DNA from: Myxococcota bacterium
Lineage (GTDB): Bacteria; Myxococcota; UBA727; JAHDBA01
Assembly: GCA_020630615.1 (NCBI GenBank)
Contig: JAHDBA010000005.1
Coordinates: 38,709 to 102,708 of the forward strand
Length of the DNA: 64,000 bases
Direction of reading: 5' to 3'
Shown here: positions 7,698 to 57,238 of the stretch, piece by piece
How the letters are laid out: each line of letters begins with the position of its first letter
Position numbering within the stretch: position 1 is the stretch's first letter
Position numbers and translations under genes: made by a program
The notes under the pieces: generated by a model
The model's input: the letters and a program-made list of their open reading frames with translations, nothing else
Database searches by the model: none
What the model was told of the DNA's origin: nothing

Positions 7698-9623
7698 TTA
7701 TTCCCTTTGGGTTGCTTTGCCGCGCCTCACTTTAATACGCCTACGGGCCCCGGCTCGCGTCCGCTCTGTTGTGGGGGCTGCACGACCACGAAGACGAAAA
7801 TCTGAGCGACGCTTTCGACCCTTCACTTTTGTTGCATTCATATTGGTTTGAGTTTGCGTCTCGATCTGAACTCGAGTCTCCGCGCTTGCGCTGAGGTGGC
7901 TCGCTTGGGTCACCAGAGTGTTGTAGCGTTCGATAGACTCTGGCGAAGCTCTATTTGGCTTTTCCAAATCAAAGGGGACCCAAAGGGTTGCCGATTCAAA
8001 AAGATTTCGAACATAGCGATCATCGGCTTTGGATTGAACACTGGCACCAACCAAATGTGTAATTCCAGAGATGATACCCGCGGCAATACCTACCGTTGCA
8101 GCGACTGCGGCGCCTTCTTCTGAATTGCTATTGGCTGCAGCATTCAAAAAGCTTTTTGCGATAGAGCCTGAGACAGAGCCTGCATCGAAAAGCACACCTT
8201 TATACACTGCGCGGTCTTTTAGGACGCGTTCGAAACGTCGACCGATCACAGATGTTGCTTGATATGAAGAAGACCACATATCAAAGCCTTGATGCTCTAT
8301 CTGCTCGGACGACAACGAGTTGCTAATTTCAACCCCTTTTCGGCAAAGCGTAAAATCAATCCCACTCGCTGCTGCACGCATCGTATTGCACCTTCGATGA
8401 TCAAAGGATTTACGTTGCGTGCTGAGCGCACTGAAGTTTTGAAGACGCTCTGCGACATCGATACGGGCAAGTTCTCCATATTGCCCCTCACGAACAACAC
8501 CGGGTCCTTGCCCGGAAAACGAAACATCGATCGCTTTGTGTTCAATCGAATTCACAAGTGTGGCTATCGACGCATCAAGTTCGGCAATGTGTTGATCAAC
8601 ATCCCTGAATGCGATGTCAACTTCGTCTCCCTCGAGCCAAGTCTTGAGCTCACTCAGTGTTTTCGTCGCTTCTTGTCTTAAATGCACCACAAGCTCTTCG
8701 TTTGTTTTTACCGATTTGGGAATCGTAGCGCGTTTGCGATCGATGGCAAAAGCATGGAGGTTGACAACCTCTTCCAATCGAACCATATTTTGAAATGCAA
8801 ATGCGATACCCTTCATAAGAAGGTCTTTCGTCTTGGGGTTCGGAGCACTATCCAAAATAGCAAGGGGCAACGCCGCAGCCAAGAGTTCTTCGCTAGCCCG
8901 AAATCCTACTGACTTCTCATGATCGATATTTTTCAAAGCTTTATCAATCAGTAGCTCTTTAATGAAGGGTCTTAAACTTTGAAAACGTAAAGCAGCATGG
9001 AGTGAACCACGTGCTTGTGAGCGATCTTGAGTACTATGCCCTTCCTCTTGAAGACAAAAAAGTCGCAACGCATAGGTTAAAGGAGCATCACTACCGAGTC
9101 GATGCTCCGTCCATCGAGCATCCAAGAACTCCGCATTGCGAAGTGCAGGCAAAGCCATATCACAACGCCCATCCTGAATATCCAAAACAGCCAAAAGCAG
9201 CGAGGCCACAACACGTTCGTGTGGACGACCCCGGTAGGCTTTGCTTCGGTCTGCTGTGAAAGCAGAGTTCATGTTCTTTGTCGTGGTTAAATCTTCAAAA
9301 GAGACAATCGCACTAGCAAGATGATTTTTGGCGAGCTGCCGAGACCCTTCACTACCCCCGTTTCGCAACAAGTGCAACGAAGCCTCAAGGTCAAGAAGAG
9401 TTGAATCTTGTGGATGTTTCTTCTTATTTAAAGTGACCTCTTTTTCAAACCTTTGAAGCTCGGTGTGCTCTTGCAAGGGTAGATTAAAGTTTAGATGCCT
9501 CCAGGACTGCTCACTCAAACTCGCACAGCCGGAACACAAAAATGAAAACCATCCCAAAAGAAGTTTGAGATGGCTCTTCTTGTTTCCATAACGAAAGCGA
9601 GAATCCTTTTTGATAGGCTTCAT
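7698..9623 (-). CDS. Hypothetical lipoprotein (641 aa)
   Basis: N-terminal signal with lipobox (LLLGWFSFLCSGCAS). No recognisable catalytic motif. The C-terminal tail is Arg/Lys-rich. Confidence 0.5.
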   Translation of the reverse strand: MKPIKKDSRFRYGNKKSHLKLLLGWFSFLCSGCASLSEQSWRHLNFNLPLQEHTELQRFEKEVTLNKKKHPQDSTLLDLEASLHLLRNGGSEGSRQLAKNHLASAIVSFEDLTTTKNMNSAFTADRSKAYRGRPHERVVASLLLAVLDIQDGRCDMALPALRNAEFLDARWTEHRLGSDAPLTYALRLFCLQEEGHSTQDRSQARGSLHAALRFQSLRPFIKELLIDKALKNIDHEKSVGFRASEELLAAALPLAILDSAPNPKTKDLLMKGIAFAFQNMVRLEEVVNLHAFAIDRKRATIPKSVKTNEELVVHLRQEATKTLSELKTWLEGDEVDIAFRDVDQHIAELDASIATLVNSIEHKAIDVSFSGQGPGVVREGQYGELARIDVAERLQNFSALSTQRKSFDHRRCNTMRAAASGIDFTLCRKGVEISNSLSSEQIEHQGFDMWSSSYQATSVIGRRFERVLKDRAVYKGVLFDAGSVSGSIAKSFLNAAANSNSEEGAAVAATVGIAAGIISGITHLVGASVQSKADDRYVRNLFESATLWVPFDLEKPNRASPESIERYNTLVTQASHLSASAETRVQIETQTQTNMNATKVKGRKRRSDFRLRGRAAPTTERTRAGARRRIKVRRGKATQRE

Positions 9624-9631
9624 TCTAAGTT

Positions 9632-10426
9632 CTATTCACTTGAAGTAGGTAGTACGAATATTTCATTCTTTTCTGAAGGTGTGTTCCTTTCCTCAATCTG
9701 AAGATGATTCGCTGAAACTTTAAATCCTTGTTCAATCACATCAACAAGAAGTGTACGTAGGGTAAAAGGAGCCCCAACATCAATCGAAGTTTTGACAGCC
9801 ATAAGTGCTCCGTCCAATGTGCGAACCATTCTAGCAAGATACACTGGACCTTGAATCCCTCGTCCTTGTTGAACCGAGATAATGTAATCAACACCCGAAG
9901 GCACCATTGCATTCCACTGGATGGGTTCACCACCTTCGATCGCTGCACGCTCTGCCGCCATGATTTGATTTGCATCCGCCATAGAGATTTCATTGAGTCG
10001 GATTCCGCTTTCCAAAAGCGCGTTGATAGTGTCCTGCATAATGCTCGTAGCGAAGACATCCGCACCTTTGATTGCATAGGGCCGGCGTACCGACTGCTGC
10101 ACGATATTACGCTGATAGGGAAACCCAAGAATAGAGCCTTGTTCAAAGCGCGCTGCACCAATTGGGTTTGCGACAGGGAGAGAATAAAACGCGCGTACAA
10201 GACCGATGGTCGGACGACCCAACTTTTCATTGTCAAGTTGAATACCTTCGATCCGAGATTGTAGGTCTTCCATCGAGTTAATAACCTTACGCTCTTTAAC
10301 CGGCGCAACCTGCGTTGTACGTGTTGCGGCTGCGACTCTACTTTGAATGGGTGCCGAGACAGGTGTTGACGCACGACACTTTGTCAGGACGACCAAGGCG
10401 ATAAGACTTACTACTATTCTATTCAT
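9632..10426 (-). CDS. Secreted envelope protein, possibly CsgG-family
   Basis: Has a signal peptide. Weak resemblance to CsgG-like lipoproteins, which often accompany LpoB-like genes. Last gene of a three-gene lipoprotein operon. Confidence 0.35.
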   Translation of the reverse strand: MNRIVVSLIALVVLTKCRASTPVSAPIQSRVAAATRTTQVAPVKERKVINSMEDLQSRIEGIQLDNEKLGRPTIGLVRAFYSLPVANPIGAARFEQGSILGFPYQRNIVQQSVRRPYAIKGADVFATSIMQDTINALLESGIRLNEISMADANQIMAAERAAIEGGEPIQWNAMVPSGVDYIISVQQGRGIQGPVYLARMVRTLDGALMAVKTSIDVGAPFTLRTLLVDVIEQGFKVSANHLQIEERNTPSEKNEIFVLPTSSE

Positions 10427-10474
10427 GACTTCTCTCCATGGGTATCAAAACAATCATTTCTACAGTGTTAGGAT

Positions 10475-11805: not shown

Positions 11806-14800
11806 ATGATCAATATAAAACATACTTTTGTAGGAAAATCGAGTCGAATAGAGTTCGTCTTACCACTCTTCCTTTCAATCGTATTTTTTGCGCCCATTTC
11901 GTTTGCTCAGTTTGCAGAGGGGCCCACTGGAATTACAATTCCTGATTCGTGCACAGATATCGATTCTTGGTGTCCGAACAGTGCGAATTGTACAGATCAC
12001 GACATGAGTGTTGATGGCAACCCTTTGACGATCACAGGCGGTGGTGGGATTGGCCAGTGTCATTGTGTTCTCGGAACTTCGGGTAGCGATAGTTTACAGA
12101 TTGATAATCCGCCAAATGCGGTTGATATCTATGTATGTTTCAACGCAGGAATCGATGTTAACTCGCTAATTAATGGTACAAGCCCGAGCGATATCACATG
12201 GCATATCAATGGTGGAGCTGGCGACGATGCATTAAGTGGATCGAACAATAACGACTTCATTGATGGTGCAGCAGGCGATGATGTCATCAATGGTGGAAAC
12301 GGAGACGATCAGATCACCGGCGGCGATGATAACGACGAGATTTATGGTGGAGACGGCAATGACTTCCTCGAAGGCAACGATGGGTCGGACACAATAGACG
12401 GTCAAGCTGGAGATGATGTTGTTTTGGGTGGACCGGGTAACGATGGAGATGTTTCGAATTGTGATCACAACCAAACCGTTCCTCCAGCAGGTCTCTTTGG
12501 TGGGCCAGGTACTGACAGTGTTCAAGGTGGTGATGGTGATGATTGTATCTTCCTTGGTGATGGTAATGAGAACTTTTACAATAATGTTCAAGGGAACCAA
12601 GGTGGCGGCTACGGCGGTGCTGGTAACGACGTTATTTATGGCGGTAGTGGCAACGATACGGTTGATGGTCAGTCTGGCAATGACATTGTAAACGGTGGTC
12701 CGGGCAATGATCTTGTTGGTGGCGGGACAGGTAACGATCATGTGAACGGCAATGAGGGGGTCGACACAGTGAATGGTAGTGGTGGCACCGATGAGTGTGT
12801 CGATATGGGTGATGGTGATCCCGACTACAGTTCAGAAGGATTTGGGGGCTGTGAACAGTTCACTTATGCGTCGATTGATAAGGTTAGATTGAAAGACCAA
12901 AATGGATCAATGCTGCTAGAATGGTCAACAGCCTCAGAAGCTTCAACTCTTGGTTTCAAAGTTATTGGGTATGATGCTTTGAATCGTGCACATTTAATTA
13001 CGGAATTTGTCCCTGCAATCCCAAATGGTGGTGGGGGCTCGGATTATCAAATCCATCTAACGGACAGATATGAGCGAATTGATATTCAGGAAATAGGTCA
13101 AAACAACTTTGGGAACAGGTTTTCTCTCAAGGTTCAAGAGCTTCAGCAAAACAATCGTGCGACAAAGGTTTACCAATCCTCTTCAATAAGTTCTGCTCGT
13201 CTCCAACCTGTCAAACATGAAAGAGTCATTGATGCGCTCGATAATCTTTCCCCGATTCATGAGGCCATTGTCGAGGTCAGCAATGAAGGGTGGATATCGA
13301 TATCGCCTTCAACTTTAGCACCGATTATGGGGTATAGCATTGAAGAAATTCAAAGAGCTGCGGTGGAAGGAAATCTACGAATAACTCTTAATGGTGAGTC
13401 GGTTGCTTACCGTGCGATTCCATCAACGGGGATCGAATTTTATGCAAGGAAACCGTCTTCTCTTTATCAAAACTATGATGCCTATCGAGTGGAGTTGCAG
13501 GAAGGGCGAAAGCTTGTTGATGGTGAATGGTTTGAGCTTAGTGCTACGAATACGATAGCGACCATGTCGGTGAATGAAAAATTTGAAGTCAATAATTTTG
13601 CAGGGACAGCGATCGCAAACTCCGCGAATCAGGATTATTGGTATTGGGCAGCAATCGCACGATCAGCGTCTGTTCCAGACTTTGAAACCGAACTTACCCT
13701 AACGCAGGATCCAACATCATCGGTTGCTCTCAATATTCTATTACGTGGTGCATCGGTTGCCTTGCACACCCGTCATCAGGTTGATGCTTATGTTGATGGT
13801 GTTTTGTTAAAAACTTTGACTTTCTCAGAAAAAGAAAGTGGCATTTTAGAGTTCGATGTTCCAAGAGAACTCATTCACGATAAGAAAGTTCATTTGAGTC
13901 TGCGCATGAGCACTTCCGCGAGTGCACAAAGCGTCGTCTATATTGATCGAATAAAAGCTAACTTTTCAAGTGCTGAGAACCTAGCTGCAGATGTCGTGCA
14001 TGGCACGGACGGTCATCACACCTTAAGTGTGACTGAAGGGGTTGCAGGTCGTATTGTTTCCGCAAGTGGAAACTATTTTGAAATTGGAGCAGACTCCACT
14101 CAACGAAGTATTCAACTTTCGGAATCTTTTGTCTGGTTGCCACTGAAAAAATCTATTGCTCAGTTTCGAGTGCGTCCTCGTCGCGTTGTTAATATTAGTA
14201 ATAGTGTTGAGCATCTAGTTGTAACGAAACGTGCTTTGGCGATAGAGGCCAATCAGCTCGCAGCGCATCGATCGCGTTCAGGGTTTCGTAGTCAAGTTGT
14301 CTATTTTGATGACATTGCGGACACCTTTGGTGCTTCTCAGAACGATCCCCGTGTAATCCATCGCTTGATTCGTGAACTGTCAGAGTCTTTAAAATACGTC
14401 GTCCTCTTTGGTAGTGGTAATTTTGACTACAAGAACCACTATGGTTTGGGTGCAGGTCATTTACCCCCAATGATGATTTCTTCGAGTGATGGAGGAATCG
14501 TTGTGAGTGATCAGCTTCTTGGTGATACGGATGGTGATCTTGAAATGGACGTTGCGATTGGTCGAATCCCAGTTGAAACGAAGGACGAGGCCCAAACCTA
14601 CATTACGAGTTTGATTGAATATGAAGAGAACCTAGCAAGCCGCAGTTATGGACCGATCGAACTTCTTGCAGATGCACACCGTGATTCGATTTCAGATTTT
14701 GACCGTGATATTGATGCCTTCTCCAGCCAAGTCAACGTTGATATTGATGTGGAGCAAATGTCAGTTGACAGCGTGTCAAGTCCCGAAGAGCTTTCGGACA

Positions 14801-15534
14801 TGCTTCAGGAAATGCTTCAAGAGAATCCAAGAGCCTTTGTCTACGCCGGACACGGTGGTATCGATCGTATCACAAAATCTGGGTGGCTATCACCAGAGCT
14901 GATGACTGAACTCCGCTCTCAAATGTCTTCTCCTCTACCCTTTGCGAGTTTGATGACGTGTCATGCGGGTTCTTTTGCGCATCCACGTGTGCGCGGCTTT
15001 GCCGAGGCGCACATGTTGGGTGAGAATCCATTTGCACTTGCGTGGATTTCTGCAGGTGCTGCAACGATTGATGTTGATAATCGTATTTTGGGTCAGGCAA
15101 TTATGAGGGAAGCAGGTTCAAATCTTGGAAACGCTCGGATTGGAGATTTAATGCGTTCAGCATTAGCGAGCACGATTGAGCGGGATGAAGAGCTTCGACA
15201 TAACCATCTTGCGTATAATCTTTTGGGTGATCCTGCGATGCTTCTGCCTCGGCGTCATGCGGGCAATACTTTGAATGCCTATGAAGCAAGAGAAATCCCA
15301 AGTGCAGGAGTGAGAGTTGACTCATTGTTGAGTGAACATAGTGTTGTGACGAACACCAATACGTTTGGTAACTTTGATGAGAAACTACACACATCAACGA
15401 TGAGTCAAGGCGTGGATCGAGGTTGTGCCACATCGTCATCCTCGCCATTTCTAACCTTGTTTGGATTTGCGCTTATCCTGTGGCGGCGTAATGCATGGCA
15501 GAATCAAAACGAATCGATAAAGCATTTTAAATAA
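11806..15534 (+). CDS. Secreted RTX-repeat / gingipain(C25)-like cysteine peptidase with C-terminal sorting-type tail
   Basis: N-terminal TM/signal. About 20 GGxGxDxUx nonapeptides (GGAGDDVINGGNGDDQITGGDDNDEIYGGDGND...) at nt ~12200-12800. C25-like block: DVAIGRIPVETKDEAQTYITSLIEYEE, then His in VYAGHGG and Cys in LMTCHAGSF at clan-CD dyad spacing. The C-terminus is GCATSSSSPFLTLFGFALILWRR. Confidence 0.6.
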   Translation: MINIKHTFVGKSSRIEFVLPLFLSIVFFAPISFAQFAEGPTGITIPDSCTDIDSWCPNSANCTDHDMSVDGNPLTITGGGGIGQCHCVLGTSGSDSLQIDNPPNAVDIYVCFNAGIDVNSLINGTSPSDITWHINGGAGDDALSGSNNNDFIDGAAGDDVINGGNGDDQITGGDDNDEIYGGDGNDFLEGNDGSDTIDGQAGDDVVLGGPGNDGDVSNCDHNQTVPPAGLFGGPGTDSVQGGDGDDCIFLGDGNENFYNNVQGNQGGGYGGAGNDVIYGGSGNDTVDGQSGNDIVNGGPGNDLVGGGTGNDHVNGNEGVDTVNGSGGTDECVDMGDGDPDYSSEGFGGCEQFTYASIDKVRLKDQNGSMLLEWSTASEASTLGFKVIGYDALNRAHLITEFVPAIPNGGGGSDYQIHLTDRYERIDIQEIGQNNFGNRFSLKVQELQQNNRATKVYQSSSISSARLQPVKHERVIDALDNLSPIHEAIVEVSNEGWISISPSTLAPIMGYSIEEIQRAAVEGNLRITLNGESVAYRAIPSTGIEFYARKPSSLYQNYDAYRVELQEGRKLVDGEWFELSATNTIATMSVNEKFEVNNFAGTAIANSANQDYWYWAAIARSASVPDFETELTLTQDPTSSVALNILLRGASVALHTRHQVDAYVDGVLLKTLTFSEKESGILEFDVPRELIHDKKVHLSLRMSTSASAQSVVYIDRIKANFSSAENLAADVVHGTDGHHTLSVTEGVAGRIVSASGNYFEIGADSTQRSIQLSESFVWLPLKKSIAQFRVRPRRVVNISNSVEHLVVTKRALAIEANQLAAHRSRSGFRSQVVYFDDIADTFGASQNDPRVIHRLIRELSESLKYVVLFGSGNFDYKNHYGLGAGHLPPMMISSSDGGIVVSDQLLGDTDGDLEMDVAIGRIPVETKDEAQTYITSLIEYEENLASRSYGPIELLADAHRDSISDFDRDIDAFSSQVNVDIDVEQMSVDSVSSPEELSDMLQEMLQENPRAFVYAGHGGIDRITKSGWLSPELMTELRSQMSSPLPFASLMTCHAGSFAHPRVRGFAEAHMLGENPFALAWISAGAATIDVDNRILGQAIMREAGSNLGNARIGDLMRSALASTIERDEELRHNHLAYNLLGDPAMLLPRRHAGNTLNAYEAREIPSAGVRVDSLLSEHSVVTNTNTFGNFDEKLHTSTMSQGVDRGCATSSSSPFLTLFGFALILWRRNAWQNQNESIKHFK

Positions 15535-18121: not shown

Positions 18122-18254
18122 TTAAAAGTCTATAGAAATCAGCTGCATTCATCTTTATTCTCGATGAGAAGGGCTAAAAACATGCGTTCGTAATCAGACT
18201 TCGCTACTCTAAACATATGATACAAAATCATGCTGTCCAGAGTAGGTGTATGCG

Positions 18255-48164: not shown

Positions 48165-50726
48165 ATGCAAAGCCAAAAGAAGCCCTGGTTTCTCTGGGTG
48201 ATACTCACACTCTTGGGTATGATCGTCTTTCACCAATTGGGATGCGCATCAACACTTAGGGACTCGCTCCGACGTATTGAAAGCGACCATTGGTCTGAGC
48301 GCTACCTTGGGGATCATCCGCTCAATCGCAGCGTAGTCCTTCGAATTGACGAGAGCACTGTACACGACTTTGGTTGTCCACCCTATGATGAAAAATCGTG
48401 GAAGACACTGAACAATCAAATCATGGCTGCAGGCATTGAAAAAGTTGCGTTCTTTGGTCGCGAAAGAGCGTGGCATCAATCACTTAACAATCCAGCTTCG
48501 CTCGAGGTGTATTTTCTTCAAGCAGGGGAGACTATTCAAGATTACATTCAGCGATTGAGTAATTTGGAGTTAGGACAAAAGACTCATGCTACAAAGTCGA
48601 TAGAGCAGGATTTGAGTTTAGCCGAATCGATTCTTGACATGCGGGAGCGTGGCCTCGCTGATCTTTACGAAAGTTTAGAAATTCCGGGTTTGGCCCTGTC
48701 GATGTTGAACTCCGGTATTACCACTCAGCAGTCTTTTAAAAACTTTAACGAACCACCGCTCTTCATTGTGACTTCGGAATCCATGGCATGTTTTACGGGA
48801 CATGGAAGCCCGATGGAAGACCATCTCACACAATGGCTTAAACTCAAGCACCTTCATAAGTTAACTTTACCGGATCTGATTCATGGGACTTTACTCTATT
48901 TCTTGTTGATGAGTATTGCTGGAATGGCGCTCTTTGTATTCCCCCTTCATACACTGTGGAAGGAGTCCTTCTACTTCATCACACTGCTCGCTTCCTTCTT
49001 TATCGTGTCTGAGATTCTTTACCGTTTGCAATCAAACTATTTACCGATTCTTTCGGGTGCATTGACTTGGGTCACATTTCGAGGGCTCAGGCAACTTTTT
49101 GTAATGACGTGGCAAAGACGACTCTTTATTGCCTTCGTGAAGAGGACTCGCCCCTATTTGGAGGAATGGCAACGTGGCCGAGCGCAATGGAAAGAGCGTA
49201 GCTTTGAAGATAAACATCGCGAGATTCTCGAGTTTTTGAGCACACTAAGTGAACCGATTCACTCCCATGTTTTTCAGACGAATGAAGAGAGTATTCTTAC
49301 GCTAGATCAATGGCATCATCCAGATTCTGAGTTTGCCTCGGAGAATTATGAGCTTCAAAACCAACTTTTGAAAATGACTCGCGAGGGACGGCGAAAACTG
49401 AAATTCAATCGTGAAAGGCATTTGCGTTCCTATCTTTATGAGCTCAGTCTCCCTTCATCAACGATAAAAACCTATTGGCATATCGAGTGCAGTGGCACCC
49501 CAAACCACCAGCGCTCCGAAGAAGATGAAGATAAACTTTTGGGTAATGTTTTAAATATGATGATGTGGCTAAGCGATACGGAGACCCACGCCAGCGCGTC
49601 TCCCCCAAAGAGCTTTCGAGGGACGAACCAATTCAAAGACATTTTTGCGAATCCACTGGAAATGAATTTAATGACGCACTTGCTGGATCAGATCGAACGC
49701 GAGCACACAATTTTGGGTGAGTTTGATCTTGCATGCGCTTTGGTTTCTTTACGCGGTGTTGTCGGCTTTACCAACCCAGCATTCGATGCTCTTTTGAAAG
49801 ACGAGAACATCAATCGAGATGGAACGATTGACAAAGTGCTCATTGCGATGGGAGGGACATGGGTCGAACGAATCTTACGAAGGGCTTGGGCGGGGAGACG
49901 GGTTCAGTTTGAGATTCTAACTCCAAAAGGCACAAGTCTCGATATTCGTATACAACCCATTTGTCTGAATGTCGCACGGAATAGGATTCGCAAAGGAAGT
50001 GCCACATCTTTTCTGATGACTCTTCGCCAGGTCTCACGTATTGATCAAAGTCGAAGAGACCGCGCTCGCAATGCAACATATATTGTTCCTAAACTTCGCA
50101 ATTTGCTCTCAATCATGAAGATGTCGGGCGACATGCTAGGGATGAACATTCGTGCAAGTGCAAAAGGAGAGGAAACCAAAGCCCTTCGCTCGATTCAAGA
50201 TGTTCTTACGCGAAAGAGTAGTGTTATGGCGAGTCGCCTTGATCAACTTGAGGCAATCTCTTCATCCTTGATCGAGGGTCATGATGAAATTCGAGAACGG
50301 GTTTTTGTGGATATTCAGGATCTTGTCAAAGACTCCTTCCTTGATTTTCAGTCTCGCAAAGAAAGAGACTTGAACCTCAAACTTAACCTTGAGGAGAGCC
50401 AACTTGTGTCTCCAGTTCTTTGTGCCCCTCGCATTCTTCGCGATCTTCTTGTCGAAGTTTTTCGAAGTCTAGTCTTTCATCATGGCGACAATGAAATTTG
50501 TGTCGGCATCGGTGAAGAGTTGGGGACTGTCCACCTTCAAATAGAAACGCGAGTCGCCGATGGTGTTGTGAGTGATCTCCAAAGAGAGATAGGGACTCAA
50601 CGGGAAGACTTAAAAGAGCTGGTAGAAGCTTTCTCTGAATTTGAGATTGATGTCGAAATTATAAATGAGGGTCATCGACGTCTTTTTGATGCGCGCTTTC
50701 CAGTTTTGCGAGAGTTCCAGGAATGA
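48165..50726 (+). CDS. CHASE2-like sensor domain protein with 3-TM module and large uncharacterised cytoplasmic domain
   Basis: N-terminal TM/lipobox. RSVVLRIDESTVHDFGCPPYDEKSWKTLNNQIMAAGIEKVAFFG fits the CHASE2 N-terminal signature. A three-helix TM block follows at residues ~235-305. The C-terminal ~540 aa has only weak HisK-like hints. Confidence 0.5.
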   Translation: MQSQKKPWFLWVILTLLGMIVFHQLGCASTLRDSLRRIESDHWSERYLGDHPLNRSVVLRIDESTVHDFGCPPYDEKSWKTLNNQIMAAGIEKVAFFGRERAWHQSLNNPASLEVYFLQAGETIQDYIQRLSNLELGQKTHATKSIEQDLSLAESILDMRERGLADLYESLEIPGLALSMLNSGITTQQSFKNFNEPPLFIVTSESMACFTGHGSPMEDHLTQWLKLKHLHKLTLPDLIHGTLLYFLLMSIAGMALFVFPLHTLWKESFYFITLLASFFIVSEILYRLQSNYLPILSGALTWVTFRGLRQLFVMTWQRRLFIAFVKRTRPYLEEWQRGRAQWKERSFEDKHREILEFLSTLSEPIHSHVFQTNEESILTLDQWHHPDSEFASENYELQNQLLKMTREGRRKLKFNRERHLRSYLYELSLPSSTIKTYWHIECSGTPNHQRSEEDEDKLLGNVLNMMMWLSDTETHASASPPKSFRGTNQFKDIFANPLEMNLMTHLLDQIEREHTILGEFDLACALVSLRGVVGFTNPAFDALLKDENINRDGTIDKVLIAMGGTWVERILRRAWAGRRVQFEILTPKGTSLDIRIQPICLNVARNRIRKGSATSFLMTLRQVSRIDQSRRDRARNATYIVPKLRNLLSIMKMSGDMLGMNIRASAKGEETKALRSIQDVLTRKSSVMASRLDQLEAISSSLIEGHDEIRERVFVDIQDLVKDSFLDFQSRKERDLNLKLNLEESQLVSPVLCAPRILRDLLVEVFRSLVFHHGDNEICVGIGEELGTVHLQIETRVADGVVSDLQREIGTQREDLKELVEAFSEFEIDVEIINEGHRRLFDARFPVLREFQE

Positions 50727-53569
50727 TTCTCGATATTTTTCCAGACCAGGGATTAAGTTACACCATCTATTTGCCGGTGTTGATCGGGATATTCTTTTTA
50801 TGGTTGTGCAACGAAGCCTTTGGATGGCCGCGTGATGGATGGGTTGTTCCCGGTTATGTCGGTATGGTTCTTTTTACGAACCCAGAATCAGCAGCTTTGA
50901 TGATGATCGAGGCACTCTATGTTTATTATGCCGTTGTGCTTTTTTCGGAAATGGGTGCACGACTTGGTTTTTGGAACCGTTTTTTTGGTCGAGAACGTTT
51001 CTTTCTCTTTGTGATCGTTTCGATCCTCGTTCGCTATCTTTTTGAGCTATGGCTTTTACACCCTTCAACCTCTTGGTTGTCGACCTGGTTGAGTGAAGGC
51101 ACATCATCGCTTGATGCCTTTCACTCGATTGGTCTTGTTCTTGTGCCACTGATCGCAAACAGCTTTTGGAAATCGGGACCGGCCAAAGGCATGCTTCGGA
51201 CTCTCTTTTTGTTGGGCATCACCTATAGTGTGATTCGACTGGCACTCCAGGACCATACAAACTTCACGATTGAGTACTTTCGCCTAATTTACGAAGATAT
51301 TTCGATGCGCTTTGAATCGGGTGCGAAAGTCTATGTGATTCTCATCGTTGCGGGATACGTTGCAGCATGGACGAATTTGAGATGGGGTTGGGATTACAAT
51401 GGAATTCTAATGCCTTCATTGTTGGCTGTTGCAATGTTCTTCCCAATTAAAATTTTAGCGAGTCTGATTGAAGCGATAATCATTGCCTTTGCGTTTGGAT
51501 TGATTACGAAAGTCCGTCCATTCAATACAATTGCCTTTGGGGGCGGCCGGCAAATTTTAGTACTATACGCTCTTGAAGTGGGTATTAAATGGATCGCTTC
51601 AATCTTCTATCAGCCACTTTGGCCAGGAATGAAAGTGACAGACCTCTTTGGGTTTGGGTATGTGCTTCCAGCGTTGCTTGCAGTTAAGATTCTTCAGAAA
51701 CGCCAATTTGGAATTGTTATTGGACCGACAATGGTTTGCATTGTCCTTTCATTTGCTTTGGGAACTCTCACATCGATATCGGTGACTCCCTTCTTTGAAA
51801 ACGTAGACTTCAATATGCCAGACCCCAATGAACGTACTCTTGCAGAAGGATCACTCGTCAATGCATTGAGCATGTCGAAAGCAACCCGACCCAGCCAGGC
51901 CGAGATTGCCACATTCATAAAAGAGCCACTGGCATACCAAACTATCGCTCGACGCTTAACCGGATGGGTTTTGGGCGAAAGCCCTTTACCTACTTCGTGT
52001 CACGATCGAAGCGTTTCGCGACTGAAGCAGCGTTATGCCTATCAATGTGAGCGCTACTTCATCGACAACGACCACCCGTTGAATCAACATTGGTCCAGTT
52101 CCTTTAAAAAACAATCTTGGCTGCATATTCACCTCCGTGAAAAAAAAGTTGAAAAGGCGCGTTCGGGAAGCCCTGAACTCTTAGTGGCCGTAGGCGGAGA
52201 GGGGCCCCGACTCCTCGCTGAGCCTTATGGAGATGATGCCTCTCGCTTTGCCGCGCTCAAAGCATGTCTACGCGTCAATTGTGCAATGATTGTCTTTACG
52301 CCACGCGGTCCAGAGAATGAGTGGTCTTTCCGCAAGCAAGTGTTAACGTCGAAAACACCAATTGTAGCGTATAAAAACTCCTCAAAATCGCCAATACTTG
52401 AAGTCCATCTGAATGAAAGAATTCAAAGTGACTTTCAACTCACCCTTTTTGGAGATCTAAGTTCGGGCCAAAACAAGCAACTTGTCGAGAAGCTTGGGAC
52501 ACACTTTAGTGGTTCTCCATCGTCAAAGTTTCAAATTCTTTGGGACTTTATGCCTGAACGTTATCGATTTGATGGTCGCTTGGATGTGAAGCTTTCTGCT
52601 CGAGAGATGCGGGAGGTCACGACCCGAAAAAGCAATCGGCCACATTTGTCGAATATCAAAGAGTTTGACGCTTATGAAAATCGTAATACAGCCTCACTTG
52701 TGATTGAACCGATGATCAGCTGTATCGATACCTGGGCGTCCGAACGGTGTCGCATCAATTTTGATAGGGCTCAACATATCGGCCGACGTATGGGTCTACG
52801 CTCTGCCCAACTCCTTCGGCAGGAACCTTCAGGGCAGGACATGGTATGGGCGGTACACATGACTCGACGGGTTCGAGATCAACGTGATGATGAGAGTGTT
52901 CATTTTCTTTTCAATTACCATGCAAAAGCAAAAGGAAGGATCCTTATTGCGCACCACTGGCAAAGTGGTGATGTCCTTTCAAGTGCGATGAAGCGTTTTG
53001 AGGAGGATGAAGTCGAGGCGATACTTTGGACAGAAGGGGATGGTGCTACGAACCGCGCCAGTAGGCTTACTCTCGCTTTTACAAGTGCATATCGAAAACT
53101 ATATGGCGCACACGCAGACTACATCTTTATTGCACCAACGTGGGGCTACTGCGATTCAAAGAACATTTACGTGAACAACATGCGAGGTGGAAACCTATTG
53201 GAAGAATCGGCCACCTACCTCGCGGAAATCTTAGGCACATCGCCTGAGAACATGCTGAGCCGCACATGGGTCAAGGAGCCCTGTCGCGATAAGGATTGGC
53301 GCTACCATCAAAGTTATCGACTTTTACGAATCGCCAATTATCCACGCGTATGGGACCTATCCATCTCACATCAAATACTCACGAATATTCCTGTGCCCAA
53401 AACACCCTTCCTTCAGTCCTTATTGCGATTATCTGTACATGCCCAAGATCAAACCCAGAAAAGTGGATTGAAGGTTGAGGAAGACCCAAGCCATAACTCC
53501 AACGATCACGCTTTCCTAAACTTTTCTGCAGGGCCTTCCCCAGCAATACACAGGGGCAAAACGCAGTGA
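50723..53569 (+). CDS. Polytopic membrane protein with tandem-duplicated PgsC/CapC-like domain fused to ~600-aa uncharacterised C-terminal domain
   Basis: FGWPRDGWVVPGYVGMVLF...FFGRERFFLFVIVSIL...HSIGLVLVPLIANSF parallels B. subtilis PgsC (GIVPAGLVVPGYLGLVF...LYGRRKFAAML...GIGIIVPGLIANTI). A second copy lies at residues ~200-330 (GILMPSLLAV...GYVLPALLAVKI). 4-nt overlap with the upstream gene. Confidence 0.5.
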   Translation: MILDIFPDQGLSYTIYLPVLIGIFFLWLCNEAFGWPRDGWVVPGYVGMVLFTNPESAALMMIEALYVYYAVVLFSEMGARLGFWNRFFGRERFFLFVIVSILVRYLFELWLLHPSTSWLSTWLSEGTSSLDAFHSIGLVLVPLIANSFWKSGPAKGMLRTLFLLGITYSVIRLALQDHTNFTIEYFRLIYEDISMRFESGAKVYVILIVAGYVAAWTNLRWGWDYNGILMPSLLAVAMFFPIKILASLIEAIIIAFAFGLITKVRPFNTIAFGGGRQILVLYALEVGIKWIASIFYQPLWPGMKVTDLFGFGYVLPALLAVKILQKRQFGIVIGPTMVCIVLSFALGTLTSISVTPFFENVDFNMPDPNERTLAEGSLVNALSMSKATRPSQAEIATFIKEPLAYQTIARRLTGWVLGESPLPTSCHDRSVSRLKQRYAYQCERYFIDNDHPLNQHWSSSFKKQSWLHIHLREKKVEKARSGSPELLVAVGGEGPRLLAEPYGDDASRFAALKACLRVNCAMIVFTPRGPENEWSFRKQVLTSKTPIVAYKNSSKSPILEVHLNERIQSDFQLTLFGDLSSGQNKQLVEKLGTHFSGSPSSKFQILWDFMPERYRFDGRLDVKLSAREMREVTTRKSNRPHLSNIKEFDAYENRNTASLVIEPMISCIDTWASERCRINFDRAQHIGRRMGLRSAQLLRQEPSGQDMVWAVHMTRRVRDQRDDESVHFLFNYHAKAKGRILIAHHWQSGDVLSSAMKRFEEDEVEAILWTEGDGATNRASRLTLAFTSAYRKLYGAHADYIFIAPTWGYCDSKNIYVNNMRGGNLLEESATYLAEILGTSPENMLSRTWVKEPCRDKDWRYHQSYRLLRIANYPRVWDLSISHQILTNIPVPKTPFLQSLLRLSVHAQDQTQKSGLKVEEDPSHNSNDHAFLNFSAGPSPAIHRGKTQ

Positions 53570-56112
53570 GGCGTAGCGATCAACTCTTAATGTTTCTCTT
53601 GCTCTTGCTCGCCATCGCCGGGGTTTTTGATCGTTGTTCAAGTCAAGCGGCGGACAGTATTGTAGAGAATACAAGTACGGTCTATTTGTATCCCTTGGCT
53701 GATGGTGTTCACATGCGCCTTCCAACCCTGGCGCATGAGTTTCAACTTCAGGTCAGTGCGTCGATACCTTTAGCGCATGCCACTGAGCTCGGTCGTACGC
53801 GTCCACGTTCCACAATACATCTTCGGGCACGCAATGAACGACAAGAAATCGTGTTTGAACGTGATTATGATCTTCGTTTTTCGTGCCCGGATCGCATTGA
53901 AACACGCCACGTGCCCGTTCGACTTTCTCGCACCAGCGCTCACGAACATAACCTGTTATCAACGTGTCACCCACAGTCGATCTATTTTGAAAGCGCTGTG
54001 GATGCAAGCGCGGTTTCAACGATTGAAGTGTCAGCACGTGAGGCAAAAAACTTTCAAATCTTTGGTCGTCTTTTCATGCTTGAGCGCCCAGAGTCTTTTC
54101 AATCGTGGAGCGGGTATCGAGGCGGGCTTTGGATGCACGAGAAGTTGAATCGATTTTTGAGAGTTGGTTCCAGTTTATGGGAAATGCCTGCTGCGGAGCT
54201 CGAAGAATGGGCATCCGAGCGATGGGTTTCTTTGCAGCCGGAAACACGCGAGAGACAAAGAGAACCGGAGCTCTTCACAAAACATCGCTTTGCTCTTGAT
54301 CGCTCGGAACTCGTACGTGAACTGGGCGTTCGTTTTGATGCGCTAGAACAAGTTCATGTCTGGAATGTCGTGGGTCCTGCGAAGCTTAAGGTTGAAACGT
54401 TAGGGGATCCTTTTTTCGGGGATGCATTTATCTACAACTCCAGAACACCTTTGCAAAGCGTGGGACAAAAAGTCCAGCATGGTTCTGAGGTCGAGATTCC
54501 TGAAGGGGACTGGTCCTTGCTCATTCGCTGGGACCTGACTGATGAGCAAAAGCAAAATGCAAATCGACAGGATGTGACACTGCCCGATGAAGCCAAGCAA
54601 AGCTTTGATCCCCTTGCCTACCTGACTTTGAGTACAATGAGCAGAGAAGCCCTCGCTTTCTTTGGAACGACGCTGCATCCAAGCGTCAAAAGGAACGGAA
54701 ATTTCATCTTACAAAAGCAAAATAGAGTCTCTCCCGGGATTCTATTGGGACTTCAAGAAGGTCGTGAGCATATCTCCAAAAGTTTTAACAATGGAGTATT
54801 GGACTCGGCCCATAGAACGCTTCTCCTTGCGTTGCGTGTGGCGAGTGAAGATGATGGATTGACGCAACGCACGTGTGAAGTCCGATTTCATGACGACGAC
54901 AACAATCTGCTCGCATCACAAAAAGTCGATCTAAGTGCCATCGTTGAAAAAATTGATTATGCAATCAATTCCTTAACTGGACAACGTCTATGGCTTTCCG
55001 AGCGCGACAAACACTATATTCAAGTACCCCGAGGTGCGAAGGGAATGAATTTGGTATGTGATATGCCGACGCTTGTTCAACTCTCGACCCAACGAAGGAA
55101 CTTGAATATTCAAGATTTGAAAGAAGAGGGACGGTGGCAGGCTCGAGGAAACCCTCGACATGATCGATCGTGGCGCTCGATAGAGTGGGATCTAAAACCA
55201 AGTCAAAGAAAACATACCCTCGTACAGGTGCATCAGCAGCCACGACACCGACTCTTTCGAGGGCATCATGAAGTTGAAGCAGAAAGGGAGAGGCTGATTC
55301 AATCGTATCAAAGCCTTAAACCCATGAATCGGCCGACCTTTTCGATTTACCGTGAGGTTGAGACATGGAAACGCGAGGCTGTCGTCAGGTGTCAAATGCC
55401 AATCGACAAGGAAGGGACCCTGAACCTTCCTCGCGAACCCGCAAGTCCCAATCGTTTTGTGTTGGACATTCAAAGCCGAGTTCCATTTTCTGGATTATCA
55501 AAGCGGGTCAAGGTCTTGAGTCAAGGTCAAGAACTATCACAATGGAAATGGGAGCGACGTGAGCATCAACTTCGAGTCAGTCGTTTAGGAGAAGAACGAC
55601 TCACGCTTGAACTTCGAGACAGCGGCCGCGGTGAACATTGGGTTCGTGTCTCGAAACCGTCAGGTCTAGGTCGATGTCGCCAACAAATGAATGTTGTCGC
55701 CTTAGCCCCAAATACGTCATTGAAGGTTAATGCTTTTCACAGGGGAGTGAAGACCAACGTCAATTTTAAGGTTTTGGGGAGTATGCCAAACTACCATTTG
55801 CAAACACATGTCGAGATACCGCAAAATGCGATGCGCACCTTTGCGCGTGGCCACACGATGCAAAGCCAACAACATCGACTCGAAAGTGAAGAAACGATCA
55901 ATATATGGAGAAGTGTGGACGCACCCATGCGCCAAAGAAACAAGGGCCGTGTGGTGCATGCGCTGAAAGACGACCTCAAACAAGGACGATACACGCTCAC
56001 ACTTAAAAATAGGGGACACGAGACGCTTTGGGTTCTGGCCTTTCAAGAAGGGCAAGACCGGCGTGAGGCTCTGCGTTCCATACTTTGGAAGGAGGATCGC
56101 TTCCGTGAATAA
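53566..56112 (+). CDS. Secreted hypothetical protein (848 aa)
   Basis: Signal peptide MFLLLLLAIAGVF. 4-nt overlap with the upstream gene. No motif recognised. Confidence 0.5.
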   Translation: MRRSDQLLMFLLLLLAIAGVFDRCSSQAADSIVENTSTVYLYPLADGVHMRLPTLAHEFQLQVSASIPLAHATELGRTRPRSTIHLRARNERQEIVFERDYDLRFSCPDRIETRHVPVRLSRTSAHEHNLLSTCHPQSIYFESAVDASAVSTIEVSAREAKNFQIFGRLFMLERPESFQSWSGYRGGLWMHEKLNRFLRVGSSLWEMPAAELEEWASERWVSLQPETRERQREPELFTKHRFALDRSELVRELGVRFDALEQVHVWNVVGPAKLKVETLGDPFFGDAFIYNSRTPLQSVGQKVQHGSEVEIPEGDWSLLIRWDLTDEQKQNANRQDVTLPDEAKQSFDPLAYLTLSTMSREALAFFGTTLHPSVKRNGNFILQKQNRVSPGILLGLQEGREHISKSFNNGVLDSAHRTLLLALRVASEDDGLTQRTCEVRFHDDDNNLLASQKVDLSAIVEKIDYAINSLTGQRLWLSERDKHYIQVPRGAKGMNLVCDMPTLVQLSTQRRNLNIQDLKEEGRWQARGNPRHDRSWRSIEWDLKPSQRKHTLVQVHQQPRHRLFRGHHEVEAERERLIQSYQSLKPMNRPTFSIYREVETWKREAVVRCQMPIDKEGTLNLPREPASPNRFVLDIQSRVPFSGLSKRVKVLSQGQELSQWKWERREHQLRVSRLGEERLTLELRDSGRGEHWVRVSKPSGLGRCRQQMNVVALAPNTSLKVNAFHRGVKTNVNFKVLGSMPNYHLQTHVEIPQNAMRTFARGHTMQSQQHRLESEETINIWRSVDAPMRQRNKGRVVHALKDDLKQGRYTLTLKNRGHETLWVLAFQEGQDRREALRSILWKEDRFRE

Positions 56113-57238
56113 GCGTATTGAATCCATAGGGACGCGTTGTGGCTTGAGAAAGACGATTGCGATTGTCACAATGGTTGTGATTTCGCAGAGCAGTCTTGCT
56201 GAAGAACAGAACAACGGTTTTAGCTCGCGCACGAAGTTTGCACAAAACAAAAAGTTTCTCGTAGAACCCCACGAAGATGCAGAGTGTTATCCAATGCTAC
56301 GCAATCTACGTCGAGCGTCGAATCGTGTTCAAAGCCCTGGACGAATACGTTTGCGTCAAACACAACTTGCATTACAAGCTATATGGCGCACCGAGAACCC
56401 AAGAGTTGTTGATGGAGTCAACCAGAAGCTTGCAGAGTACGGTCTCACTTTTTCCAAGTGCACATCGGAGATCACGACTTCAAAACAATCTCCAAGAGCA
56501 AGCGATCAATGGTGGCTTCTTCACGAGATAGAACCGATGTCATTTGGTTATGGTGCAACACTGATTCGTGCAGGTGCAAACCTGAAGCACGGAAATACGG
56601 TAGTTCAAATTCCACACTCCTATTATGACAAAGGAACCCTAGCATTTGTACGCGAAGCGATGCGTATACCTGGGATCAATGTGATCATGGTAAATACAGT
56701 TCATCGCTACCGTGCGAAAGGGGTTAGCGACCAGGACCGTGATGTCCATCTCGCAGATTTTGCGCATCAAGACGCAAGCCTTTACCAAGCTTTGACACAA
56801 ACGATAGCAAGGCTCGCCCCCCAAAGTCGCTTTGTTCAGATGCACGGGTATAAAAACACCAAGAGTGCAGAACTGATTTTGAGTGCGGGGCTACGCCATC
56901 CTGAACCCTCCTTACGCGCATTGCTTAGAAGATTAAAAGCGAAGCTCGAATCCTTTGCGAATGCTAAGTTGAGCCCATGCACTTTCAAAACACTTTTGTA
57001 CCCGAGCCAAAGTCGACGCTTGGGTGGGACACAAAACACCCAAGCGCGCTGGTTGAATCCACGCGGGTATCGTTTTCTACATGTTGAAATGTCCTCAGCC
57101 TTACGTGAGCAAAGCACTGCATCGCCTGGTTGTCGACGAAAGATACTTGAAGCCTTGGTGGATGCTCCTACGGAAGGTCTCAAAGAGGGCGAACGCCTAA
57201 ACACACAGAGTACTGAATCCAGTGCAGGGCGCCACTAG
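56105..57238 (+). CDS. Secreted hypothetical protein, possible metal-dependent hydrolase
   Basis: GTG 56105 behind a strong AGGAGGA RBS, overlapping the upstream stop. Good signal peptide (NKRIESIGTRCGLRKTIAIVTMVVISQSSLA). His-containing blocks IPHSYYDKGT, HLADFAHQD and VQMHGYKN. Confidence 0.4.
   Translation: MNKRIESIGTRCGLRKTIAIVTMVVISQSSLAEEQNNGFSSRTKFAQNKKFLVEPHEDAECYPMLRNLRRASNRVQSPGRIRLRQTQLALQAIWRTENPRVVDGVNQKLAEYGLTFSKCTSEITTSKQSPRASDQWWLLHEIEPMSFGYGATLIRAGANLKHGNTVVQIPHSYYDKGTLAFVREAMRIPGINVIMVNTVHRYRAKGVSDQDRDVHLADFAHQDASLYQALTQTIARLAPQSRFVQMHGYKNTKSAELILSAGLRHPEPSLRALLRRLKAKLESFANAKLSPCTFKTLLYPSQSRRLGGTQNTQARWLNPRGYRFLHVEMSSALREQSTASPGCRRKILEALVDAPTEGLKEGERLNTQSTESSAGRH

Follow-up and report, generated by a model that had tools for sequence, protein, structure and literature searches.

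Analysis of a 64,000-nucleotide stretch of contig JAHDBA010000005.1 from a Myxococcota bacterium (the window) suggests that one of its genes, open reading frame 1 (ORF1; positions 48165 to 50726), encodes a divergent CHASE2 receptor that ends in a dead kinase and regulates, by protein contact, a machine encoded by the genes directly downstream (ORF2 to ORF6); for this explanation as a whole, the best that we can offer, we estimate a probability of about 0.55. Its best-supported part is the identity of the receptor: transitive homology and domain layout make it very probable that ORF1 belongs to the CHASE2 family, despite its failure in the direct test with the CHASE2 hidden Markov model (HMM). 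ORF1 is a genuine gene and not a chance open reading frame, as a Myxococcota metagenome-assembled genome (MAG) encodes a homologue of matching architecture at the corresponding place in the operon. The predicted features of ORF1 are as follows (TM, transmembrane helix).

48165..50726, + strand: ORF1, putative 853-aa membrane receptor (divergent CHASE2 ectodomain, TM bundle, PAS-like domain and degenerate DHp-CA module), ATG start
48189..48245, + strand: TM1 or signal anchor, residues 9-27, following K5 and K6, assigned by hydropathy
48246..48890, + strand: extracytoplasmic domain, residues 28-242, a probable shortened and divergent CHASE2 domain with Cys71 (in GCPP) and Cys209
48333..48401, + strand: motif VVLRIDESTVHDFGCPPYDEKSW, residues 57-79, the putative N-terminal CHASE2 signature, with which WGTPPW, WGPPPW or FGCPPF of the orthologues align
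48891..49103, + strand: membrane bundle of TM2 (243-261) and TM3 (268-286), both strong, and a marginal TM4 (~291-313)
49104..49649, + strand: helical linker and region at the orthologues' GAF position, residues 314-495; GAF in orthologues, not detectably GAF in ORF1
49650..50039, + strand: PAS-like domain, residues ~496-625, including ALVSLRGVVGFTNPAFD, assigned from conservation with the relative P0002, hhalign and the family profile
50040..50279, + strand: DHp-like helical hairpin, residues ~626-705, with the H-box remnant IVPKLRNLL and Pro642 at the acceptor-His position
50280..50723, + strand: putative degenerate CA (HATPase_c-like) domain, residues ~706-853, assigned from family-profile matches and alignment inspection

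Probable CHASE2 ancestry of the ectodomain

The initial annotation had described ORF1 as an N-terminal TM followed by a periplasmic domain of ~200 aa, three further TM and a cytoplasmic region of 540 aa, and our hydropathy analysis agrees with this description, except that the third helix behind the ectodomain (~291-313) is weak, with a Kyte-Doolittle maximum of ~1.0. ORF1 thus has the topology of a CHASE2 protein: a TM, an ectodomain of 213 aa (segment 28-242, acidic), short against the ~250 aa of the CHASE2 layout, three TM of which the third is marginal, and a cytoplasmic region. We infer the third helix of the bundle from the clear third TM of aligned homologues and from the positive-inside rule, the membrane bundle being followed by a basic stretch with nine K/R within residues 313-345; a three-TM bundle and a cytoplasmic placement of the last ~540 residues are plausible. 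The three motifs singled out in the same annotation were found at residues 57-79, 636-651 (NATYIVPKLRNLLSIM) and 772-787 (HHGDNEICVGIGEELG). A lipoprotein reading of the N terminus (QLGC) was rejected, given a poor lipobox and a Cys that is not conserved.

A word-indexed search of 5.8 billion proteins returned only ORF1 itself (a singleton), and an exhaustive phmmer search of 1.84 billion cluster representatives returned one true relative, P0002 (780 aa, E 3e-9), which is encoded on a Myxococcota MAG contig (L001) with a GC content of 46%, like the window. A second phmmer match, P0003, is a repeat protein and was discarded as spurious. P0002 has the same architecture as ORF1 at 23% identity, and the two have the motifs F/YGCPP, ALVSLRG..G..N.AFD and PK(L/F)RNL(L/I)S in common.

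The assignment of the ectodomain to CHASE2, proposed in the initial annotation, was borne out by layout and by transitive homology and failed in the HMM check: neither ORF1 nor P0002 matches the Pfam CHASE2 model (PF05226; gathering score, 26.3 bits) at an E value of ≤1. The connection is made by the positional orthologues of ORF1, that is, the proteins encoded at the same position in related loci. Four of the seven that were scanned (in loci L014, L009, L005 and L013) passed the CHASE2 cut-off, with the following scores for the set.

L014 upstream protein: CHASE2, 66.5 bits, E 3.7e-18, full length
L009 upstream protein: CHASE2, 38.3 bits
L005 upstream protein: CHASE2, 28.7 bits
L013 upstream protein: CHASE2, 27.0 bits
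L003, L004 and L006 upstream proteins: CHASE2, 23.6-24.9 bits (below the cut-off)

When the alignment of ORF1 and P0002 was compared by hhalign with that of four positional orthologues, the two matched over 754 collinear columns (98.2%, E 3.4e-14; residues 27-834 versus 38-886), while controls with a reversed or column-shuffled query gave E values of ≥0.12. A comparison confined to the ectodomain, between the ORF1 branch and seven orthologues, was likewise significant (95%, E 3e-8) and was limited to residues 11-106, a stretch that spans the anchor and the N-terminal CHASE2 signature; here VVLRIDESTVHDFGCPPY of ORF1 lies opposite VLMVGIDQDTLRTWGTPPW (L014), IVGDAGTIEKWGPPPW (L013) and IIAVDTRLVEQFGCPPF (L003). 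The C-terminal half of the ectodomain aligns in order without reaching significance by itself (E 0.003). An intermediate group aligned well with the strongest CHASE2 members (97%, E 3.5e-11), and the ORF1 branch compared directly with the three strongest members gave no significant match (E 0.007). Since ORF1 aligns with its positional orthologues and these match Pfam CHASE2, we assign ORF1 to the same family and regard it as a fast-evolving member of a myxobacterial CHASE2-receptor subfamily and not as a new domain.

The ectodomain of ORF1 is ~50 aa shorter than those of its orthologues, a middle segment having been lost. Its two cysteines, Cys71 (48375-48377) and Cys209 (48789-48791), co-occur in six of nine family sequences, and neither has an equivalent in the three members closest to canonical CHASE2. 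Such covariation points to a probable disulfide or a redox switch that may be specific to the subfamily.

The cytoplasmic output region

The output region had been described as a novel domain with faint HisK-like stretches. The stretches are present and probably correspond to the remnants of an H box and of an N-box/G1 region in a DHp-CA module, and the region is probably not novel, since a family profile points to a degenerate PAS, DHp and CA pseudokinase. The family profile was built from nine members and that of the last ~240 residues from seven. The nine-member profile matches solved GAF, PAS and DHp-CA structures in collinear order, including the GAF domain of a cyanobacteriochrome-type kinase (8w26, E 2.6e-5), PAS domains (7yrt and others of solved kinases and DcuS; E 1e-3 to 0.08) and the DHp-CA modules of many histidine kinases. 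The profile of the last ~240 residues matches more than 15 different kinases in register, among them 7z8n (E 9e-6), 4jas (E 1.8e-5), RetS (6dk7/6dk8, E ~5e-4) and DivL (4q20, E 7e-4). At the level of the family, these profile comparisons establish a DHp-CA ancestry of the C terminus.

In these comparisons, the family sequence 'lasfklrnli' lies opposite the H box 'SHEIRTPL' of solved kinases. The column of the acceptor histidine holds Pro642 in ORF1 and P/P/K/F/Y/F/F across the seven members that have the helix, and it never holds His; the histidines within residues 620-853 of ORF1 are at positions 706, 772, 773, 790 and 837. On inspection of the family alignment, the N-box Asn, the G1 box (DxGxG) and the G2 box (GxGxG) were not recognisable in ORF1, its ATP-lid region is shortened, and the family-profile matches to solved kinases stop near the G1 box. 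HisKA and HATPase_c gave no match at E ≤1 in any of the nine family proteins, so the Pfam scan for HATPase_c that had been proposed as a check on ORF1 came back empty. Because the acceptor histidine is replaced by Pro642 and the N, G1 and G2 boxes are lost, we conclude that ORF1 cannot signal by phosphotransfer. Judged from sequence, its output region is probably a degenerate PAS-DHp-CA module, a pseudokinase, and not a novel domain.

N-terminal to this module, a GAF domain occupies the corresponding position in some orthologues, with scores of 22.8 bits in L014 (GAF; cut-off, 22.4) and E 1.3e-4 in L013 (GAF_3). The PAS-like segment is the best-conserved stretch between ORF1 and P0002; the ORF1 PAS region matches that of the family weakly by hhalign (63%, E 7e-5), and the L005 orthologue matches PAS_8 with an E value of 0.03. 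The orthologue of a Pseudenhygromyxa species (L013:7899-9998; 699 aa) consists of CHASE2, TM, GAF and PAS-like regions without a DHp-CA module.

The conserved operon and a proposed mechanism

The stop codon of ORF1 overlaps the start codon of ORF2 (ATGA, 50723-50726), and the genes that follow overlap or abut in a similar manner.

50723..53569, + strand: ORF2, 948 aa, two PgsC/CapC-like membrane repeats (~10 TM) and a cytoplasmic region
53566..56112, + strand: ORF3, 848 aa, signal-peptide-like start, no recognised domain, kept in synteny wherever a fetched locus reaches that far
56105..57238, + strand: ORF4, ~377 aa, signal-peptide-like start, probable GTG start at 56105
57241..62295, + strand: ORF5, 1684 aa, signal-peptide-like start, without known domains, large exported protein, syntenic
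62324..64000, + strand: ORF6, partial, still open at the last position of the window, homologous to the sixth operon gene (~1389 aa) of L003 and L004 (tblastn, E 7.7e-37)

ORF2 matches Pfam Caps_synth_CapC in two stretches (113 bits, 1.3e-32), carries ~590 further residues and scores 56 bits on the NCBIfam PgsC model, under its equivalog cut-off of 96; an AlphaFold2 (AF2) model reached a confidence (pLDDT) of 72. The family of ORF2 comprises proteins of ~1050 aa and gave 400 matches, with Corallococcus, Myxococcus, Sorangium, Haliangium, Nannocystis, Enhygromyxa and Pseudenhygromyxa among the named sources. The cytoplasmic part of ORF2 contains two degenerate domains homologous to the core of ORF4 (hhalign, 94% and 84%), in which the His positions are replaced. 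Members of the ORF4 family itself (~320-380 aa, exported) share, among others, the invariant residues H171, D175, H247, H326 and E328 (numbered from the 56105 start) and the motifs Q-x-P-H-x3-D-x2-T, R-Y, A-D-x2-H, Q-x-H-G, N-x-Q and F-x-H-x-E; ORF4 has no match in Pfam, NCBIfam or PDB sequences and is a candidate periplasmic metallohydrolase. The homologues of ORF6 have weak HEAT-repeat matches, and, since ORF6 is homologous to the sixth gene of other loci, the operon comprises at least six genes. Neither a PgsB-type (Mur-type) ligase nor a CapA domain was found in ORF1 to ORF6 with Pfam and NCBIfam, and the operon is not a canonical poly-γ-glutamate operon.

On the MAG contig L001, homologues of ORF2 (57% identity in the membrane domain), ORF3 and ORF4 come after P0002; beyond them, a long open frame occupies the ORF5 position. 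The ORF2 homologue there (L001:7887-10438) is split into two overlapping open reading frames, 7887-8978 and 8924-10438; the split may be genuine, dividing the CapC membrane part from the cytoplasmic part, or may stem from a frameshift or an error of assembly. The order that recurs in Myxococcota loci is a CapC-fusion gene followed by genes for proteins of ~850-900 aa, ~315-360 aa, ~1500-2000 aa and ~1400-1500 aa. In nine of 11 informative loci, the gene that directly precedes the CapC-fusion gene encodes a membrane protein of 700-900 aa; the sensor occupies this position in the window and in L001, L003, L004, L005, L006, L009, L010 (frameshifted), L013 and L014, and it is missing at the CapC-fusion locus only in Corallococcus (L002) and Sorangium (L012). 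A metagenome scan with sensor patterns yielded one new locus, L009, and a scan with CapC patterns found nothing. Scans for promoters and terminators gave counts at or below shuffle expectation, and a literature search found nothing relevant on this operon. The initial annotation had ORF1 heading a novel operon: ORF1 is indeed the first gene of a conserved operon, which is uncharacterised yet widespread in Myxococcota and not unique to the window.

In the metagenomic locus L005, the CHASE2 sensor is directly preceded by genes for a GAF-GGDEF protein and a stand-alone Hpt protein (L005:5535-7280); in L004 and L010, a single-domain response regulator is encoded two genes upstream of it. A gene for a sedolisin-type peptidase (Pro-kuma_activ plus S8/S53) is found just upstream in L013 (Pseudenhygromyxa sp.) and L012 (Sorangium).

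We propose that ORF1 would link periplasm and cytoplasm as a subunit that regulates or scaffolds a machine encoded downstream, which may consist of the duplicated PgsC/CapC-like inner-membrane protein ORF2, the exported proteins ORF3 to ORF5 and the HEAT-like cytoplasmic protein ORF6. An envelope cue would alter the conformation of the ORF1 ectodomain, and the signal would then pass through the TM bundle and a dimer of the PAS and pseudo-DHp domains to contacts with the cytoplasmic domains of ORF2, with ORF6, or with both. The sensing of a cue, the output by protein contact and the function of the machine are parts of this scheme that we infer. That ORF1 regulates or scaffolds a CapC-like machine by protein contact seems to us a reasonable possibility at somewhat below even odds. 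More tentatively, ORF1 might be the dedicated regulatory subunit of an undescribed trans-envelope machine of the Myxococcota, in which a PgsC/CapC-like channel fused to two degenerate ORF4 domains would work with a candidate metallohydrolase, two very large exported proteins and a HEAT-like protein, and in which the CHASE2 ectodomain, with its possibly redox-sensitive Cys pair, would gate the machine directly via the dead-kinase scaffold.

Outside the conserved cluster, a gene for a GlsB/YeaQ-type small membrane protein (47839-48117, + strand; Transgly_assoc, NCBIfam PRK10457) precedes ORF1; the intervening 47 nt gave no terminator-like site, and the gene may be cotranscribed with ORF1. A kynureninase gene (45660-46946, - strand) also lies near ORF1. 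Elsewhere, the window encodes a 1242-aa protein with RTX calcium-binding repeats and a C25 (gingipain-type) peptidase domain (11806-15534, + strand) and two large proteins full of DUF4215 cysteine-rich repeats (18246-21332, + strand, and 39307-41469, - strand; one with E 8e-104). Myxobacteria-like predators typically secrete RTX/C25 and DUF4215 proteins of this kind or carry them on the surface. Together with the genes for aconitase B, Lon and HMG-CoA reductase that accompany the DUF4215 repeat proteins, this gene content fits a chromosomal region of a low-GC organism related to the Myxococcota.

Competing explanations and known systems

A number of results weigh against a CHASE2 receptor with a dead kinase that regulates the downstream machine. 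ORF1 alone matched none of CHASE2, HisKA, HATPase_c, PAS and GAF at E ≤1 in Pfam, NCBIfam and PADLOC, and a PDB sequence search with ORF1 alone matched no solved structure; the C termini of ORF1 and its L001 relative, searched alone, gave no PDB matches at E ≤10. An AF2 model of ORF1 from a two-sequence alignment was unusable (pLDDT, 33) and lends no support to a fold. In domain-wise hhalign comparisons, neither the DHp-CA region of ORF1 against that of the orthologues (E 0.015) nor the region at the GAF position (residues 320-495) against the family GAF region (E 0.4) was significant, and the assignments of both regions in ORF1 therefore rest on full-length collinearity. As the core operon exists without the sensor in Corallococcus and Sorangium, the sensor is accessory to it. 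Finally, the Hpt and GGDEF neighbours in L005 hint that some members may still join phosphorelay or cyclic di-GMP circuits.

One alternative, in our view a distinct but minor possibility, is that ORF1 is a pseudokinase of the RetS/DivL kind, inactive by itself, that binds and modulates a genuine histidine kinase or a response regulator whose gene lies elsewhere; its target would then be operon transcription and not the machine. The family-profile matches include RetS and DivL, both noncanonical kinases that act by protein contact, and some orthologues have such genes nearby (response-regulator genes in L004 and L010, Hpt and GGDEF genes in L005). However, the RetS and DivL matches are no better than those to ordinary kinases, and the neighbours are not conserved across loci: no response regulator or other two-component partner is conserved in the operon, and no two-component gene adjoins the operon in the window. 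The Pseudenhygromyxa orthologue, moreover, has kept its position in the operon while lacking the whole DHp-CA module. That the kinase is active after all, autophosphorylating on a noncanonical residue such as His706 (in a GH motif) and signalling to an unlinked response regulator, appears highly improbable. Although DHp-CA ancestry is detectable at the family level and G705-H706 is common to ORF1 and P0002, the segment with His706 is deleted in other family members, and the lost N-box Asn and G1 and G2 boxes, the shortened lid and the lack of HATPase_c matches throughout the family all speak against catalysis.

Somewhat less probable than a RetS/DivL-like role, and well above an active kinase, we rank a purely structural role, in which ORF1 is an inner-membrane subunit whose periplasmic CHASE2-derived domain docks the exported proteins ORF3, ORF4 and ORF5 onto the CapC-like core and whose cytoplasmic domains are decaying relics. 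All domains have diverged to an extreme degree (the two members nearest to each other share 23% identity, compared with 57% for the membrane domain of ORF2), which is in line with this idea, as are the loss of catalytic residues and of the middle segment of the ectodomain. Nevertheless, the high conservation of the PAS-like segment between these same two members argues against a mere relic, and in two genera the core operon occurs without this subunit. Regulation of the machine by protein contact remains our preferred explanation.

To our knowledge, the cue sensed by CHASE2 ectodomains has been established for few members. A subfamily without enzymatic output that is locked to one membrane machine by adjacency and translational coupling would offer a natural system for studying CHASE2 sensing and the transmission of signals by pseudokinases, and direct gating by a dead-kinase scaffold, if true, would represent an output mode new to CHASE2 receptors and give a first handle on the function of the operon. 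The operon is a more novel object than the sensor: a six-gene envelope system with a PgsC/CapC-like core and no poly-γ-glutamate ligase, without a characterised member, which ranges from relatives of Myxococcus to Sorangium, Haliangium and the Nannocystineae. For annotation, the analysis turns an apparent orphan into a diverged member of a known receptor family.

Known CHASE2 receptors include the adenylate cyclases CyaD1, CyaD2 and CyaK of S. meliloti, the cyanobacterial CHASE2-GGDEF protein Dgc2 and CHASE2 histidine kinases. An outer-membrane protein relays the signal of the S. meliloti CHASE2 cyclases (PMC13001267). ORF1 resembles these receptors in its topology (an anchor, a periplasmic domain, three TM and a cytoplasmic output) and in its signature of a hydrophobic strand followed by D/E and then by G-x-P-P-aromatic. 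It differs from them in scoring nothing on the Pfam model, in an ectodomain that is ~50 aa shorter with its middle deleted, and in the change of the signature from W-P-W to C-P-P-Y with a covarying second Cys; its output is a dead kinase, and its gene is linked with a CapC-like envelope operon, not with a cyclase or two-component partner. With RetS of Pseudomonas and DivL of Caulobacter, ORF1 probably shares a module derived from DHp-CA that works without canonical His autophosphorylation signalling. RetS and DivL, however, keep recognisable HisKA and HATPase_c domains and largely intact folds, whereas the module of ORF1 lies below HMM detection, with Pro at the acceptor position and a shortened ATP lid. 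The downstream genes, in turn, recall the PgsBCA(E) operon of Bacillus in that the membrane part of ORF2 matches Caps_synth_CapC; in contrast to that operon, the match is duplicated, fused to ~590 residues and under the PgsC equivalog cut-off, and, in place of PgsB and PgsA/CapA homologues, ORF2 is accompanied by four large proteins of unassigned family.

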